This document shows, piece by piece, positions 33,004-56,016 of a DNA stretch of 64,000 nucleotides. The DNA comes from a virus, in IMG/VR virus record IMGVR_UViG_3300037840_000188, positions 32,001 to 96,000 of that record, one strand, 5' to 3'. The notes beneath the pieces are model-generated. The model was not told the DNA's origin. It worked only from the letters and a program-made list of their open reading frames with translations, and did no database searches. Every line of letters begins with the position of its first letter. Position 1 is the first letter of the stretch. The position numbers and the translations under genes were made by a program.

Positions 33004-34293
33004 ATGCCTCAAGAAGAGTCTACCGCATCTGCATCACGAACGATCAAGTTTAATTCGACGGCGTTTGAGCGCTTCTGGTCCAAGGTCGATAAGAATGGGC
33101 CGGTGCCGGAACATCGACCGGATCTGGGGCAGTGTTGGGTTTGGACGGGGCAGATCAGTAGCGTTGGTTATGGCGTGCTCCAGCCTGCAAGTTATGTCCC
33201 TGAAGAAAAAGCGCATCGCGTATCGTGGATATTTGCGTATGGTGAAATACCGGATGGACTCCAAGTGCTGCATCGTTGTGATCGACGATCTTGCGTCAAC
33301 CCGGCTCATTTGAGATTGGGCACGCGAGACGACAACAGCAGAGATATGGCCACGAAGCTCAGAGCATCCAAAACGAAACTTGACATTGAGGCGATTAGAG
33401 ATATTCGCTCTCAATACGCTCACCGATATTACGGGACCGTACTTGAACTGTCAGAGAAATACGGAATCAACAGAAGCGAAGTCAGAAGAGTGGCAAAGGG
33501 GTTAATCTTTCGGGATGTAGATGCCGAGCGTGATCCAGATTCAGAATTTATTGCCGGAAGCGGCCTTGAGCGTCCACCAGCGATGGATGGATCGCAAATC
33601 AATTTCGTGCCGATAATCGTTAAGCCGCTGATGGACATCTCTGGACACACCTACGGGCAACTGACTGTTAAATACCTTATTGAAGCACTACCAAATGGTG
33701 ACGCTCGCTGGCTATGTGCCTGCTCTTGTGGTACCGAAAAGTCAATCAGGATGCAGAACCTGCGCAAAACTGGAGGGACGCGCAGTTGTGGGTGCTTATC
33801 CGATAAGGCTCGAAGGAATAATAAGCCACCGCTCGAAAAACGCTTCTGGGATCTCGTTGATAAGCGAGGTCCAGATGAGTGCTGGCCATGGAAGGGATCG
33901 CTCCGGGAAGGCTACGGACGAATTAAGCGCAAGGGCGTTCCGATGGGGGCGCATCGCGCCTCGTGGGAGATCGCTCACCCCGATGAACCACGCCTCGGGC
34001 CTAACGACTTTGTGTGTCATACCTGCAACGCGCCAACTTGCGTCAATCCTGCCCACCTCCTGCGCGGCAATGTGACTCTCAACAACTTCGATAGAGACAT
34101 CAAGGCTGCAAATAAAGATTGGACGTTCGATAAAACGGCAAATCTAATTTTAGAAATAAAAGGACTGCGCGCGAACGGCCTTAGATACTCCGAAATATCA
34201 GAAATAACCGGCGTGCATGAGATTTATATCAAGGAGGTGTTGACCAAGAAGCACGATCAAGAGTTCTCCAGAATACTTAAAGTTGAGCTTTAA
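33004..34293 (+). CDS. HNH homing endonuclease with two HNH modules
   Basis: Two copies of RFW...CWxW...AHR.SW...H.C...CVNPAHL. Confidence 0.88.
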   Translation: MPQEESTASASRTIKFNSTAFERFWSKVDKNGPVPEHRPDLGQCWVWTGQISSVGYGVLQPASYVPEEKAHRVSWIFAYGEIPDGLQVLHRCDRRSCVNPAHLRLGTRDDNSRDMATKLRASKTKLDIEAIRDIRSQYAHRYYGTVLELSEKYGINRSEVRRVAKGLIFRDVDAERDPDSEFIAGSGLERPPAMDGSQINFVPIIVKPLMDISGHTYGQLTVKYLIEALPNGDARWLCACSCGTEKSIRMQNLRKTGGTRSCGCLSDKARRNNKPPLEKRFWDLVDKRGPDECWPWKGSLREGYGRIKRKGVPMGAHRASWEIAHPDEPRLGPNDFVCHTCNAPTCVNPAHLLRGNVTLNNFDRDIKAANKDWTFDKTANLILEIKGLRANGLRYSEISEITGVHEIYIKEVLTKKHDQEFSRILKVEL

Positions 34294-34308: not shown

Positions 34309-35574
34309 CTATACAAGGTAAGGTGCGTGGCTCGCACGCCACTTGCCGGTGTCCCATGGCGCTAAAATTTGTTCGAGTTGTTCGTAAGAAATATTCGTGA
34401 GGCCGACTTCCTCATCATTTCTCTCCATATCATTCAATAATCCCTCTGCCTTGATTTGGTGTTGCGTCGCGAGATTCAAATTAAAGTAGGGGTTGGGGTG
34501 ATCAATATCCGCGCCAGGATAACGAGCGCATTTCTCCAGTGCCATCTCCAGAAGTACTTCTCCACGGTTGGCGACGAATGGCGGTAATTGCGGTTGCTGA
34601 ACGGTGAGATCGCTTTCTTTCGCGATATAAATGTAAGGCAGGAGCGCGCTCTGAAACGAAGTCTGAAATGACGGCGCAGGCCAAATCTCGTATCGCGGTA
34701 CGCCGCTTGTGATTTGTGACTGTGCATTAATGACGAAAAGATCTCCCGAGATGTACGAGCCGCTCGTTGGAAAATAAATCTGAACACCATCCTGAAGATC
34801 TACCGGACTTCCGTCGGAAGGGGTCACGATAGGGCCAGTAAATGAAGTCTGTCCGGAGCGCATCCACTGAAATGCAGCGGTGCCAGGCGCGCCGGTCGTA
34901 GTGATCTGCACGATGTAAGTGGCGCTTGAAACATAAGAGTAGCCAAAGGTGGTTGTCGAGACTGGCGCGCTGCCCGTCGCCGCGACCGGAATCACTGGTC
35001 CAATCGTCCCGCCAAAGTTCGCTGTGTAATCCCTGAATGCAACCCCAATCGGGACTCCCTGGTTCGTACGCTGGGGGTCATACACCGCCAGTTCATTCTC
35101 GGTTATATTTATCCATAGGCGATAAGCTCCGCTTAGTGAAATAACTACGTACCAATAACCGAAATCCGCCGGGACCGGATAGTAACATTGCAAAATTTGG
35201 TACGGCACGTTGGTGATATCAGGCCCAGACCATGGTTGGTCGATTAAGATCGAAGTCGGTGATAGGTAGTTCTGGATCGTGTAATATGGATAGAGCAATC
35301 CAAATGCGCGAATCTGCTGTCCGACCATTTGCGGAGTCCAAGTGGTCCCAATACCGGTCAGGAGGTTCGGATTGCCAGTGCTGACATTTGTGGATATCGT
35401 GCCGGTATTGTAAATCGGAGGCGGGGCGAAAGTTCCGGACCTGCGGCGAAAAGACCATTCTCTCCGGCTTTGAAATGTGTGCCACGAATCCTGGATAAGC
35501 TGGGACGAAAGCTGCACCCCGACCGCTGGGCAACGATTTAAGAGGCGCTGGGTTAGTGTGTTATAGTCATCCAT
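34309..35574 (-). CDS. head-tail adaptor-like virion protein
   Basis: RREWSF, YPVPADF, EIWPAP; follows head genes. Confidence 0.55.
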   Translation of the reverse strand: MDDYNTLTQRLLNRCPAVGVQLSSQLIQDSWHTFQSRREWSFRRRSGTFAPPPIYNTGTISTNVSTGNPNLLTGIGTTWTPQMVGQQIRAFGLLYPYYTIQNYLSPTSILIDQPWSGPDITNVPYQILQCYYPVPADFGYWYVVISLSGAYRLWINITENELAVYDPQRTNQGVPIGVAFRDYTANFGGTIGPVIPVAATGSAPVSTTTFGYSYVSSATYIVQITTTGAPGTAAFQWMRSGQTSFTGPIVTPSDGSPVDLQDGVQIYFPTSGSYISGDLFVINAQSQITSGVPRYEIWPAPSFQTSFQSALLPYIYIAKESDLTVQQPQLPPFVANRGEVLLEMALEKCARYPGADIDHPNPYFNLNLATQHQIKAEGLLNDMERNDEEVGLTNISYEQLEQILAPWDTGKWRASHAPYLV

Positions 35575-35586
35575 TCAAAGCGACCC

Positions 35587-35620
35587 AAAACAAAGAACGC
35601 CGCCCCCAAGGAGCGGCGTC
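35587..35620 (-). terminator. intrinsic terminator after head genes
   Basis: GACGCCGC...GCGGCGTT followed by CTTTGTTTT. Confidence 0.65.
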
Positions 35621-35897: not shown

Positions 35898-36044
35898 CTA
35901 GTACTTCTTCGACATGCCCCTGGACTTCTCGTGTTCCTTGTGCTCTTTCTTCTTCATGCCGATGGACTCGTGCTTGCGCCCTTCCTTCTTGTGCGCCATT
36001 TCCTTCTTCATGCCCATCGATTCGTGCTCTTCGGCTTTCTTCAT
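35898..36044 (-). CDS. small Lys/His/Glu-rich protein (possible in-frame extension to 36119)
   Basis: AAGGAG SD; MKKAEEHESMGMKK. Confidence 0.65.
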   Translation of the reverse strand: MKKAEEHESMGMKKEMAHKKEGRKHESIGMKKKEHKEHEKSRGMSKKY

Positions 36045-36127
36045 CGGAGATCTCCTTTTGGATTGCCCGCTGATGTAGCGGCGGGTTGTGGTTTCGATTT
36101 GTGAGAGTTCGTCGGGGATATGCGTGC

Positions 36128-36403
36128 CTATTTGACGCTGCTGTGGCCCTGTGCAGCCTTATTCCCGATAGGTTTGAAACAATCCTCCATGGAAGTCATC
36201 AAGTGCTCTGCCGCGTCTTCCTTGGTGGCGTGGACGGCAGTGTGGGACTCCGAGGGTCCATACTCATCGCCCTCGGCACGATGACGGCTCCGTGAGATCA
36301 CACCGCCCTCAGCAGGTTCGAAGCTTATCTCGACGAGCTTCTTCTTGCCTGTCTTCGGCTTGTGTGCCTGTTCACGGAGAGCGATAGCTGAGGTCTTGGC
36401 CAT
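36128..36403 (-). CDS. hypothetical protein
   Basis: ORF track. Confidence 0.6.
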   Translation of the reverse strand: MAKTSAIALREQAHKPKTGKKKLVEISFEPAEGGVISRSRHRAEGDEYGPSESHTAVHATKEDAAEHLMTSMEDCFKPIGNKAAQGHSSVK

Positions 36404-37347: not shown

Positions 37348-38454
37348 CTACGCCACAAATCCGAACCCGGACGCATGATATCCCGGTAAGACCGATAAAT
37401 TGTGCGCTAGCAACACTTTACCGACTATTTTGGTGTTTCCAGCGCTGGGGATAAACCCATCATCATCCAGCGTCCCGTTGAACGGCGCATTCTTCGAAAT
37501 GCGGTACTTGATGTTCGGCTTGCGGGCGTTCAGGAACCAGATCGATTCGCCGCCCTGAAGGTTGCCGGACGGATACGCGGTCACCGCGCCGCCAGTGGTG
37601 TAAGACAGGTACCTGGTCGCCACGCGGTCGTTGGTGCCGCCGCTGGCTGTCAGGTAGGAGCCGGGAGCGTAACGAGAAGCCAGGATCACCGCACCGTTGT
37701 ATTCGAGGCCACGGAAACCGCCCTTGGCGATAGTGACGTTCTGGAAGCGCTGCTGAGTCTGATAGTTCGAACGAATGTAGCCCTGACCCTTGGCAGTTGT
37801 CAGGATGATGTTGGGCTCGTACTCGCCAGAACCATAGTTGACCGACTGGTACATGTTCTCCATCACCGGGAGGGTGATGTTCGCACCGGCGAAGTTGACG
37901 GGCGCGGGAGCCAGCATACGGCCACCATACAGCGAGCGAGTCAGGGTGCCATAGATCGGATAGGCCGAACCGTCCCAGCCGGGCGTCACGCCGTCAGAGA
38001 GGGCTTCATCGAGGCCGTTGATGACCTTGACATACGCGCCAGTCTGGCCCTGGAGATAGAGCTGGAGTGCGGTCTGCGCGCCGAGTTGCATGTAGGCGGA
38101 GTCCACGCGCTCTTCGACGAGCTTGATTACCGCGAGCGGCCCGTTGTTCAGCACCTTGATGTCTTCCTTGTAGAAGGGGATCATCACGGTCTGGTACTTC
38201 GGATCGAAGCGCAACTGCTGCTCGATCTGGCGCTGGTCGGCAGGCAGATCCTGACCCTTCGAGTACGAACCGCCATCCTGGACGTCATACTCGATGTTGT
38301 CGTTCCACGAAGAGCCGCCCTCGACCTCATCGAGACAGTTCTCGTCGAGGAAGGACATGAGCGGATCTTTATTGAATACGAGATCACGGAGCTTTGGCTG
38401 TTCGTCGATGTAGCGGCGAGTCGTGACTTCGATTTGCGAAAGAGTGTCAGGCGT
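37348..38454 (-). CDS. major capsid protein (inferred ACG start)
   Basis: Follows scaffold; INGLDEA, GGFRGLEYNGAVI; frame open to ACG at 38454. Confidence 0.8.
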   Translation of the reverse strand, partial: TPDTLSQIEVTTRRYIDEQPKLRDLVFNKDPLMSFLDENCLDEVEGGSSWNDNIEYDVQDGGSYSKGQDLPADQRQIEQQLRFDPKYQTVMIPFYKEDIKVLNNGPLAVIKLVEERVDSAYMQLGAQTALQLYLQGQTGAYVKVINGLDEALSDGVTPGWDGSAYPIYGTLTRSLYGGRMLAPAPVNFAGANITLPVMENMYQSVNYGSGEYEPNIILTTAKGQGYIRSNYQTQQRFQNVTIAKGGFRGLEYNGAVILASRYAPGSYLTASGGTNDRVATRYLSYTTGGAVTAYPSGNLQGGESIWFLNARKPNIKYRISKNAPFNGTLDDDGFIPSAGNTKIVGKVLLAHNLSVLPGYHASGFGFVA

Positions 38455-38486
38455 ATAGGTACCCTACCTTTGCTAGCTTAAATTCG

Positions 38487-39801: not shown

Positions 39802-39948
39802 TCAACGTATCCCCGCCTTATTTGCATCGCATGCGGGCGACGCGATTTCCTTGCCCATTGATTTTTGGCGACCGACCTTCGCGGAGAACCCGGTTTCCTT
39901 CTTCGTGAGTCCGACACCCCGGCTGGAGCCGCGCTTCTTACTGCCCAT
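39802..39948 (-). CDS. small basic protein
   Basis: MGSKKRGSSRGVG. Confidence 0.45.
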   Translation of the reverse strand: MGSKKRGSSRGVGLTKKETGFSAKVGRQKSMGKEIASPACDANKAGIR

Positions 39949-39965
39949 TGATTCGTGTTCGCGCT

Positions 39966-40166
39966 TCATTTGGCTATAGCCCCTTTACCCCTGAGCTTCG
40001 ACAATGTCTCCGCAAGGCGGGACTGTTTGCCGAGTTTTCCCGGCGATCCGGCGTTCTTCGCGGCAAATGACTGTGTGCCCATCCCGGCCTTCTTGGCTTT
40101 GGCTCCGAAAGCGCCCTTGTTGAGATTGGCGTGTTCTATCCAATCAGGGTCTGGGTTTGTGGGCAT
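39966..40166 (-). CDS. small basic protein
   Basis: WI...KGAF..KAKKAG...ARLAETL-like pattern. Confidence 0.6.
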   Translation of the reverse strand: MPTNPDPDWIEHANLNKGAFGAKAKKAGMGTQSFAAKNAGSPGKLGKQSRLAETLSKLRGKGAIAK

Positions 40167-53644: not shown

Positions 53645-54562
53645 TTAATCGTCAGACCAGTCGTCCACCGCCGCTGCCCAAGCCTCGCGATACGACTTTT
53701 GCTCGCCGCTCATCGTTGGAGCTAGGTGCTGCCAGTCTACATCGAGTCGCTCTGTGACAGGCTCGTCAGTTCGCTCTGGATTATCTGTCCAGCGATGACC
53801 AGCCCAGAATGCCAGGTTACAGGCCCGGAGGCGATCATCGTGGATTCCATAAGCACCACGAGCAGTCATTCTTTGCATGTCAACAACGGCATTAGCGTAC
53901 TCATCTACAGCCCACGGCGACATTAATTTCACCCTGCGAGACATCAGGTGCATGCGTGCCCTGGTCCACAGAATTCTCGTGCTCCTTGGCGTCGCCTGCC
54001 AGCCTATAACGTTCGTGTCTTCCGCGACGGTGTTGGCAAACTGCTGCCACATCCACATATTCCCGTACCCAAGTCGGATTAATTCCTGCGTCATTAGGGG
54101 ACCGGGGCCGGGGTATGACTCGTATATAAACTCGCACTGATCCCCTTCTTCTCCCGCGTACATGCGCCCCATGACATTGGCTACTTTTGCCAGCTCTGCA
54201 GCATCAACAGGAGCCGCGAACTCGGCCACCTGAAGATCCCGCATGACAAACGCTTGTGTGCCCGTAGCCTTGTCGATGACCGGCTTATTATTCTTGAATA
54301 GCGGCATCTTTATGGCATTCGGTCGGAAAATTTCGATCACGCCGTTATCGGTCTTATAGTCATCTTCGCGACGAGACCCTCGGCTCCAGTTCGTAATCCC
54401 CTCGGACGGGTCCGCCGCCATTATGTATTTGGCCCAATGTTTTGGCTCTTCCCAGACGAGCAGTAATCCCCTGGGGTCACCATTGACAGACTCGTCGGCT
54501 TCGCCAGTTCGCAAGAAGGAACTTCCAGATACGTGGAAGGCGGATTGGAATTCGTCGTTCAC
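53645..54562 (-). CDS. terminase large subunit, nuclease domain
   Basis: YIMAADPSEG, QVAEF, GIHDDRLRA. Confidence 0.85.
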   Translation of the reverse strand: MNDEFQSAFHVSGSSFLRTGEADESVNGDPRGLLLVWEEPKHWAKYIMAADPSEGITNWSRGSRREDDYKTDNGVIEIFRPNAIKMPLFKNNKPVIDKATGTQAFVMRDLQVAEFAAPVDAAELAKVANVMGRMYAGEEGDQCEFIYESYPGPGPLMTQELIRLGYGNMWMWQQFANTVAEDTNVIGWQATPRSTRILWTRARMHLMSRRVKLMSPWAVDEYANAVVDMQRMTARGAYGIHDDRLRACNLAFWAGHRWTDNPERTDEPVTERLDVDWQHLAPTMSGEQKSYREAWAAAVDDWSDD

Positions 54563-54568
54563 AATATC

Positions 54569-55825
54569 CTAGTTTACCGACAACTCATACTCATAACAGG
54601 CCCCTGGATTCATGCACTCGTTAGTTAGCTGCTCGATAAGCTCTGGCGACAAGGCCCCTTTATGTGGCGATTGAAAGGTCTCTCCGGGATCAGCCCCAAA
54701 ATTGGTCAGAAACTCTGGCAACTCTCCGTTACTTACATGCTCTGCCCGCGTGGACTCCCACCAATAAAGCTGCTCGCGAGTCGGTCGATATGTAATGCCA
54801 TCATTGAACTCCGGCGAAGTGCGCTCGATCTTCTCGGCGTGCTTACGTGTATGCTCTTCCGGAACCCAATCATCTGGCGCAATGGCTCGATATTTGGTTT
54901 TGTTATACCACCACGGAACGAAGCAATAAATCCAGTCCTCGTAACCTCGACGGTGCCACCTCGCTCCCTCCGAAGACTCATGCCAATAATTCCCCTTACC
55001 GTCAGACGTAGATTCCTGCACGTGGAGGGTCGTGATGGCTTTTGGAATCGAAGGAACGAAGCTGAACCTTATTTTTCCAGGCTGCTTGAATAACGCGACC
55101 TCAGTGAGGTGCGAAATATCGTTCTGCGTACCCGTGCCAAAGCCAGTTTCCGAATTCTCCGCCTGATAGCTGATACGACTTGATATCGGATCTTCAAATC
55201 CCAGTTCCGCATTCTGTTTGTCAGGATAAATGTTAGGCTTTAACCACCAGGCGAGCTTATCGAGAAAGAGATGATCACGAGCAAAAACTTCCGAAATGCG
55301 CTGATCGTCGAGAGTCGCGAACAGGCCGCGCACTGGATACCAGAAAAGCATCCGATGCCACATCATGCCGCGCACTGTCGCTGTTGCGGCGACCTGGCGA
55401 ACCTTGTGGATGTACGCCTTAATGCCTGTCGTGAACTTATACTTGCGCTGCTCTTCGTGGCACTCTACCTCGCGCTTGCCAAAAAGTTTGATATATCGAT
55501 GCTGAGATTCAAGCAGCATTGGCGGTCCGATACCGCTGCCACGCCCGACGCCGGGGTCGATTTCCAGATTGAAATATCTCGAAAAAAAATACTCGAAGTC
55601 TACCTTGCATAACAGGCGCTCACTATCCAGAAATTCTTCTTCCTCGCGGTTTAGTGGCCTGATTAATTGCCCCTGCGGTAGGAGCTTTCTTGTTTTCGGA
55701 TCGCGAATCAGCGTCTCTAGGTGCGTAGAAAATTCAATCGAACGGTCGCGGCTCTGGCGCTGGAATTTGAGACCAGCCTTTTTGGCCTTGTGTAAACGCT
55801 GGGCGATTATTTCCTGACTGTACGT
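54569..55825 (-). CDS. terminase large subunit, ATPase domain (inferred ACG start)
   Basis: HKVRQVAAT (Walker A-like), HLTEVA (Walker B), ESTSDG, FVPWW. Confidence 0.85.
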   Translation of the reverse strand, partial: TYSQEIIAQRLHKAKKAGLKFQRQSRDRSIEFSTHLETLIRDPKTRKLLPQGQLIRPLNREEEEFLDSERLLCKVDFEYFFSRYFNLEIDPGVGRGSGIGPPMLLESQHRYIKLFGKREVECHEEQRKYKFTTGIKAYIHKVRQVAATATVRGMMWHRMLFWYPVRGLFATLDDQRISEVFARDHLFLDKLAWWLKPNIYPDKQNAELGFEDPISSRISYQAENSETGFGTGTQNDISHLTEVALFKQPGKIRFSFVPSIPKAITTLHVQESTSDGKGNYWHESSEGARWHRRGYEDWIYCFVPWWYNKTKYRAIAPDDWVPEEHTRKHAEKIERTSPEFNDGITYRPTREQLYWWESTRAEHVSNGELPEFLTNFGADPGETFQSPHKGALSPELIEQLTNECMNPGACYEYELSVN

Positions 55826-56016
55826 AGCCGATTCTCCTGTGCCATCCCGACGCGCTCTGTATAACCCTGCCTGCTCTGCGCCTCGGTAGCCTTACGATAC
55901 TCCGCAGCATCCCGAGCCGTCCACTGCCTGTTACCGATGGCGCGCAGGGCGACTACGTTGTCAGTGGGACCGTCGCCGAAGAGGCGGAATTTTTTGGAGA
56001 GGATGGGTTCTGTCAT
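55807..56016 (-). CDS. hypothetical protein
   Basis: ORF track. Confidence 0.5.
   Translation of the reverse strand: MTEPILSKKFRLFGDGPTDNVVALRAIGNRQWTARDAAEYRKATEAQSRQGYTERVGMAQENRLRTVRK

Follow-up and report, generated by a model that had tools for sequence, protein, structure and literature searches.

The stretch of DNA analysed here (the window) is 64,000 nucleotides long and comprises bases 32001-96000 of a 140,995-bp virus record. Its minus strand carries a structural operon in which a coiled-coil, scaffold-like gene is followed by the gene for the major capsid protein (MCP), genes for proteins of 197, 89 and 91 amino acids (p197, p89 and p91), a 48-aa open reading frame termed KH, an 83-aa gene (p83) and a terminator-like hairpin, which closes the MCP-p197-p89-p91-KH-p83 unit. 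KH begins Met-Lys-Lys and contains two HES[MI]GMKK repeats. The entire gap of ~80 bases between the p91 stop and the KH ATG is occupied by a second copy of the beginning of the capsid gene, designated c2 (Table 1).

Table 1. Features of the capsid operon around c2, in window coordinates
Feature	Position	Strand	Basis
Terminator-like hairpin, 11 pairs then a T-rich run, after p83	35596..35620	-	
KH mini-ORF, 48 aa, Lys/Glu/Met/His-rich, short form	35898..36044	-	ORF list; dN 0.18, dS 0.56 against L026
Candidate long form, 73 aa if ATC-started: N-arm-like helix, Arg-rich linker with internal Shine-Dalgarno, KH	35898..36119	-	
c2: copy of the MCP translation-initiation region and N-arm codons 1-22	36045..36131	-	repeat search, six-frame search, L026 orthologue
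AAGGAG, Shine-Dalgarno for the KH short form, 7 nt upstream of ATG 36044	36052..36057	-	
p91, 91-aa gene, TAG stop adjoining c2	36128..36403	-	
MCP, HK97 fold, ACG at start-codon position 38454-38452	37348..38454	-	
Putative scaffolding protein, 310 aa	38487..39419	-	gene order and homologue comparison

A repeat search paired positions 36072-36128 with 38407-38463 over 57 nt at 74% identity, and when all six frames of the 141-kb genome were searched with the MCP as query, the MCP itself and the c2 site (E 6e-4, 26 residues) were the only matches. Since c2 is the only second match to the MCP in the whole genome, the similarity is not due to chance. There is one extra copy only, and no further copies of the c2 peptide that would make it a shared tag were found in the genome. 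In the KH frame, positions 36119-36045 encode I-PDELSQIETTTRRYISGQSK-RRSP and run directly into the ATG at 36044; the MCP counterpart is the ACG (38454-38452) followed by PDTLSQIEVTTRRYIDEQPK, and 15 of 20 residues are identical between the two peptides. The KH frame is open from 36158 (after the TAA at 36161-36159) to the stop at 35898-35900, with no ATG, GTG or TTG upstream of 36044. The original prediction, that a second copy of the capsid N-terminal peptide lies in frame with KH and has no AUG of its own, was therefore borne out, and all seven c2/MCP codon pairs that it listed as differing only synonymously (CCT/CCC, CTT/CTC, TCG/TCA, ACG/ACA, ACT/ACC, CAG/CAA and AAG/AAA) are present.

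The copy is real but had been described too narrowly as a peptide. Similarity to the capsid gene reaches back beyond the start position (TAGG...) and forward into the next two codons, indicating a DNA duplication of the whole initiation region of the capsid gene and not of the peptide alone. The Shine-Dalgarno sequence of KH, AAAAGGAGA, is positioned at the Lys-Leu-Arg codons of the MCP (AAG CTN MGN in MCPs), and the N-arm codons at 38451-38386 represent the source-type sequence of c2. The copy keeps the TTRRY core, which varies little or not at all across 60 MCP homologues, and lacks Pro18 and everything past residue 22. In the window, c2 is changed at two residues that are at least 90% conserved in the MCP family, Val9 to Thr and Asp16 to Ser, which may mean relaxation. 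The c2 part of the long form includes PDELSQIETTTR and RYISGQSK. c2 is a paralogue of the N-arm of an HK97-fold MCP.

The capsid gene itself has a non-AUG codon at its start position in the window, and the translation of its N-terminal extension, also claimed by the original prediction, was confirmed by three observations. Firstly, 260 database homologues of the MCP were found, and among the best 120 of these most are 366-408 aa long, covering 99% of the extended query; of 16 fetched homologues, 13 open with M-PD[TSIN]..., one is given with V (GTG) and the other two are truncated calls from an internal Met. Secondly, PHROG 9953 (major head protein) aligns from MCP residue 6. Thirdly, the AF2 model of the MCP (pTM 0.74), which matches HK97-fold capsids and encapsulin shells (Mic1, SU10, T5 and HK97), has helices at residues 5-16, 18-21 and 29-37 before the E-loop. 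The source segment of c2 is truly capsid protein and forms the N-arm.

Across the related loci, ATG is the commonest codon at the MCP start position, and GTG (L001, L003, L007, L021 and L026), TTG (L006), CTG (L023) and ATT (L024) are also found. ACG occupies this position in four lineages, namely the window, L002 (268-270), L020 and L013/L014, and so recurs among lineages whose MCPs are only 62-88% identical. The MCP start position lies at about 4998-5009 in L020, L013, L014, L023 and L024, and an upstream motif, GGGTAYYTAT, is common to the ACG, CTG and one GTG type of MCP start. None of the 23 tRNAs of the window has a CGU anticodon able to read an ACG start.

Distribution of c2 and KH among related phages

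The extended KH peptide was used as a tblastn query against 24 related loci, where it matched only MCP N-termini; a second copy was found in 0 of 24. KH and c2 are both absent from these loci, in which the interval from the 89/91-aa genes to the 421-aa gene varies in content. Such sporadic presence at a variable position is that of a moron or accessory gene, and the absence of c2 and KH from 24 relatives indicates that they are dispensable.

The closest relative, L026, whose MCP is 98-99% identical in protein and 88% in DNA, carries an orthologue of c2 (L026:2732-2809). This copy begins GTG-GCC-CCC-GAC..., encodes M-APDDTSQIEVTTRRYIDGQSK-RRTI-M and is in frame with a 49-aa KH, forming a 75-aa ORF that was called as a protein by the ENA gene caller (P0121). 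An extra 60-aa gene precedes this GTG-c2-KH ORF. Its lineage also includes L027-L031, five short contigs of different sample origin, all of which keep the GTG and the frame; L026-L031 as a group were drawn from several separate samples/assemblies of peat and soil metagenomes. The duplicated peptide, which the original prediction had proposed to look for in related phages, is thus missing from the 24 loci but present, and in frame, in L026-L031, so that c2 is known in two lineages, the window and L026-L031.

Broader searches returned little beyond the sister lineage. Three database proteins matched, all from one lineage, and a protein search with the 75-aa form found its own lineage only. An exhaustive phmmer search against 1.8 billion representatives gave one match, the sister KH, and a search of the 'longer' type with KH gave no match. 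Scans for the c2-specific codon pattern gave 0 matches in viral contigs (two scans), one match in metagenome contigs, of the L026-type sister lineage, and 18 matches in genome contigs, all of them chance matches in unrelated genomes. Pfam and PHROGs held no match to KH or to the long form, and the ESM Atlas gave unnamed clusters only, below 0.9.

In one related locus (L015:7647-7967), a single 106-aa ORF combines a p91 homologue with a KH-like tail (…GRKHESAGMKKKE…), which, together with T4 gp61.1 (see below), makes a modular design of an N-terminal partner plus a KH tail credible. This ORF is preceded by a homologue of the 60-aa gene of L026 and of window positions 39966-40166, and the same locus has an 855-aa ORF (L015:8034-10601) made of two tandem copies of the 421-aa protein of the window (34309-35574). 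In the sister lineage (L026:2534-2959), the TGA of the 60-aa gene is in frame with the GTG-c2-KH ORF 13 nt downstream, and read-through would give a 140-aa fusion; the shared frame may be due to chance, which is 1 in 3. The window itself has a second pair of small genes upstream of the scaffold module (39802-40166, minus strand). The 66-aa protein of this pair has GK[LI]GK..RLAETL in common with the 60-aa protein of L026, and the 55-aa protein has one KH-like EHESMG.KK motif; the pair looks like a duplicated accessory cassette.

Divergence of c2 between the window and L026

The original prediction took the seven synonymous codon pairs as a sign of protein-level selection. On its own this argument from paralogues is weak, because the synonymous differences could pre-date the duplication and be inherited from divergence among capsid genes that were functional. 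Constraint was tested on orthologous c2, window against L026, and since c2 occurs in two lineages only, the statistics rest on a single pairwise comparison of 24 codons. Over these codons dN was 0.22 and dS 0.68, a dN/dS of ~0.3 that equals the ratio for KH, with the caveat that the histories may be mosaic. The MCP gave a dN of 0.015 and a dS of 0.74, and p89, p91, p197 and p421 gave dN values of 0.13-0.42 and dS values of 1.1, 2.0, 2.3 and 2.7, respectively; the dS of p83 was not computable.

The two c2 copies differ at 18 of 72 nt (75% identical) without an indel, unlike the true intergenic spacers, which differ in length between the window and L026. Neutral divergence at the MCP synonymous rate was calculated to leave the copies ~53% identical; over the 60 nt shared with the MCP, ~28 differences would be expected neutrally and 13 were seen. 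The 18 differences change 6 residues in the KH frame and 10 in each of the other two frames. In 20,000 simulations of random substitution, the mean number of changes was 11.2, giving a P of 0.001, or 0.002 when the 18-nt Shine-Dalgarno block was barred from change (P range about 0.001-0.004). All 4 isolated differences and the one abutting a run fall at codon position 3, and the three 3-nt runs of differences coincide exactly with codons. This frame-specific, codon-phased divergence of orthologues argues for protein-level selection on c2, and it is here that the selection proposed from the paralogous pairs finds support.

Both c2 copies have derived states in common against all MCPs (CCC and GGG CAA TCC AAA AGG AGA), and each c2 is equally far from the MCP of its own genome and that of the other (18-19 differences), indicating one old duplication and no recent conversion. 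An 18-nt block holding the Shine-Dalgarno sequence (36051-36068) is identical in the window and L026; its conservation at the nucleotide level means that part of the constraint is not on protein. Taken together, the pattern of divergence suggests that c2 is translated in the KH frame, at least in the sister lineage and probably also, at a low level, here.

Start sites and alternative accounts of c2

The internal AAGGAG-7 nt-ATG of KH is strong and conserved in the window and L026, and the 6-nt spacer is the most variable stretch. A functional ribosome-binding site is expected to combine a conserved Shine-Dalgarno sequence with a variable spacer, and most of the product should therefore be the 48-aa form. 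On these signals, KH is likely made mostly as the short form, with the long form as a minor product. The upstream start of L026 is a GTG without a Shine-Dalgarno sequence, 13 nt after the preceding TGA. At the aligned position the window has CAT, with 10 nt fewer in the upstream spacer. The near-cognate candidates in the window are ATA 36131-36129, which overlaps the p91 TAG, ACG 36125-36123 (2 nt after it) and ATC 36119-36117 (8 nt after it), with no Shine-Dalgarno sequence before any of them. The ATC at 36119, which the original prediction had put forward as the start, aligns with the Ala codon following the GTG of the sister and not with the GTG itself; it is one candidate start only. In E. 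coli, initiation from AUA, AUC, AUU and CUG is ~1-2% of that from AUG and from other codons 0.1-1% (bioRxiv 10.1101/063800). Given the nearness of the p91 stop, termination-reinitiation would be the most plausible upstream route. The proposal of a long isoform agrees with the sister lineage, where the GTG start and the 75-aa form called by ENA are found, but less well with the window, which has no canonical start and where the short form should dominate.

The explanation that we favour, tentatively, is that a duplicate of the capsid arm was co-opted as an in-frame extension of KH, creating a dual-start gene with an arm-mimic tag. According to this model, c2 would be an old duplicate of the 5' end of the capsid gene, in which the ribosome-binding region is followed by ~22 initial codons for the opening helix of the HK97-fold N-arm, and which came to serve as an N-terminal extension of the small, charged and probably disordered KH. 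Most ribosomes would initiate at the internal AAGGAG-7 nt-ATG and make the short form, and a minority would start upstream and make a long form of ~73-77 aa bearing the N-arm mimic. The upstream start would be the GTG 13 nt past the stop in the sister, and the ATA, ACG or ATC 0-9 nt past the p91 stop in the window, probably reached there through termination-reinitiation coupling.

A less likely alternative, though one to be taken seriously, is that the long form has been lost here. The ancestor and the L026 lineage would make the GTG-initiated long form, and in the window the deletion of the 60-aa gene would have taken the GTG with it, leaving c2 as a recently silenced coding remnant that serves KH as a leader with a Shine-Dalgarno sequence. 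The window may indeed have lost a canonical start together with the 60-aa gene, as judged from the CAT and the shortened spacer; the weakness of near-cognate starts in E. coli, the lack of a Shine-Dalgarno sequence before ATA, ACG and ATC, and the two window-specific replacements at capsid positions conserved in at least 90% of MCPs all point the same way. However, despite a dS of ~0.7 the window c2 has acquired no stop, frameshift or indel, and the window branch shows no excess of nonsynonymous changes over the L026 branch. Moreover, with ACG at the MCP start in the window and three other lineages, non-AUG initiation is evidently workable in this phage system.

It is improbable that c2 is a recombination scar that was never translated, dragged in by illegitimate recombination at the capsid 5' end when the KH moron was inserted or rearranged. 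c2 would then be a spacer, and its codon-like pattern would stem from capsid diversity, through patchy conversion with the MCPs of co-infecting relatives, or from chance. The stretch from p89/p91 to p421 is a place where genes are readily gained and lost among relatives, the copy includes non-coding bases upstream of the MCP, as expected of a duplication at the DNA level, and the sampling is tiny. Set against this are the codon-phased divergence of the orthologous copies (P about 0.001-0.004), the c2-specific shared derived states that flank the variable codons and argue against repeated conversion, and the absence of an indel from c2 while the intergenic spacers of the same two genomes vary in length.

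Least probable of the three is a cis-acting RNA element, in which the duplicated initiation region would give KH the regulator of the MCP mRNA, a ribosome standby site or an unstructured enhancer: the duplicate does cover the MCP ribosome-binding region, the 18-nt block is identical between the lineages at third codon positions too, and the c2 region is poorly structured, as initiation regions are, but no stable or conserved fold was found (z-scores +0.5, -1.1 and +1.5), neither c2 nor the MCP initiation region folding better than its shuffles, no candidate regulator is known, and outside the Shine-Dalgarno block the differences are phased to the codons of one frame, unlike those of an RNA element. 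A consensus scan detected no promoter inside c2. Two further candidates were rejected. Relative to p91, KH lies in the -1 frame, which is open across the last 10 codons of p91; a frameshift fusion of p91 to c2-KH was discarded, as no slippery heptamer was seen by eye and the sister has a gene in between. The genome has an RF-like gene and many tRNAs; recoding of TAG was discarded, as the MCP has no internal stop and the TAG of p91 aligns with a TAA in the sister.

A possible role in capsid assembly and comparison with known systems

The tentatively favoured dual-start reading bears on how the long form might act. c2 keeps the first N-arm helix (residues 5-16 of the MCP model), and in the AF2 model of the long form, which is of low confidence (pLDDT 58), a helix is predicted at residues 6-15 only, the copied helix. 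No prohead protease of the Peptidase_S78 or ClpP type was found in the 141-kb record, and a separate scaffold gene precedes the MCP; assembly therefore looks P22-like or T7-like. In P22, which has an HK97 fold and protease-free assembly, the N-arm helix of the coat protein is the docking site for the C-terminal helices of the scaffolding protein (PMC9965877). c2 copies the equivalent first N-arm helix, a likeness that is by analogy only, with no sequence similarity. The putative scaffolding protein of the window has a conserved C-terminal segment containing [YF]D[RK], which is predicted to be helical, and this protein could be the binding partner of the N-arm. By this analogy, such a helix, carried as a mimic by a protein that is basic and disordered, would be expected to engage the scaffold, or an arm-binding site left vacant, in a targeting or decoy role. 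In the assembling procapsid, the N-arm mimic would anchor a small number of basic-protein molecules on the scaffold or the inner shell.

Such a role would in effect resemble that of the capsid targeting sequence (CTS) of T4. This short peptide is found at the N terminus of dispensable proteins that are small and often basic (IPI-III and Alt), and loads them into the prohead via the scaffold (PMC3012670). c2 copies the capsid protein; the CTS does not. The CTS is common to several cargo proteins and is cut off by the gp21 protease, whereas the c2 peptide has one extra copy in a genome where no protease of the types searched for was found, and its tag would be present on a minor isoform only.

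Encapsulins, which are among the structural neighbours of the MCP model, offer another likeness, as their cargo-loading peptides are short terminal peptides that dock cargo inside an HK97-fold shell. Such peptides are usually C-terminal on their cargo and do not come from the shell protein, whereas c2 is capsid-derived; encapsulins are also a different biological system. The arrangement of one frame with two starts and a long and a short product is that of dual-start phage genes such as lambda S107/S105 and T4 gene 21, for which an internal start is annotated. Known dual-start phage genes use canonical starts, unlike the window, where the upstream start would be near-cognate or coupled.

A close architectural parallel was found in T4 gp61.1, a hypothetical protein of 54 aa (L052:4967-5131). 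Residues 2-38 of gp61.1 match residues 57-93 of gp23 (L054:1446-3008) with 46% identity (E 6e-9), a match that spans the protease cleavage region and the mature N-terminus, and gp61.1 ends in KKKKEESKEKEE, a Lys/Glu-rich tail. Like c2-KH, it joins a copy of an N-terminal segment of its own capsid protein to a charged tail in a small protein. The two have no sequence relation in a PHROG scan, and they differ in setting: gp61.1 is a stand-alone gene of the early region with its own ATG, whereas c2-KH would be a dual-start gene in the capsid operon, and the T4 head is matured with a protease, whereas none of the Peptidase_S78/ClpP type was found in this phage. No function of gp61.1 is reported in the literature searched. 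The two appear to share one architecture that arose independently. A broader reading, which we consider doubtful, is that phages repeatedly build arm mimics by joining the scaffold-docking N-arm helix of their own capsid protein to a charged tail, as at this locus and in gp61.1, and that the mimic is made here only as a low-abundance long isoform, by non-AUG or coupled initiation. In that case, the number of basic-protein copies docked to the scaffold or inner shell of each procapsid would depend on the unusual initiation that also gives the capsid gene an ACG at its start codon.

Overall, c2 appears to be a copy of the opening helix of the capsid N-arm that has been exapted and conserved, and the interpretation of the original prediction is partly supported. 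The locus extends the targeting-tag and dual-start themes in a new form and, beside gp61.1, is an independent second case of a mini-protein of the capsid-arm-plus-charged-tail kind. If the long form is real, the locus would be a natural case, readable from sequence, of a capsid N-arm reused as a portable tag or decoy, with a loading or regulatory principle distinct from both the T4 CTS and encapsulin cargo peptides that could help to package foreign proteins in HK97-type capsids that are protease-free. The locus would in addition offer an argument, internal and drawn from evolution, that near-cognate or coupled initiation matters in this phage group, whose members have ACG, CTG, ATT, TTG, GTG or ATG at the capsid start. 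If the long form is not made, the locus would be an ordinary recombination relic acting as a leader.

Several features of the wider genome were also observed. The whole record is 141 kb, with 23 tRNA genes in the window, and relatives with the same capsid module are 61-64 kb; either the genome is truly enlarged or the assembly is composite. In the terminase region (53645-55870, minus strand) there are two adjoining ORFs of 316 and 305 aa, and the frame upstream of the ATG at 55519 is open for >100 codons without a canonical start. A close relative (ENA ERZ1426815) has a PDDEXK_5-like gene directly after the MCP and an HNH_3 gene after a 417-aa gene, and the window has a double HNH-like gene at 33004-34293 (plus strand); homing-type nucleases cluster around the capsid module.
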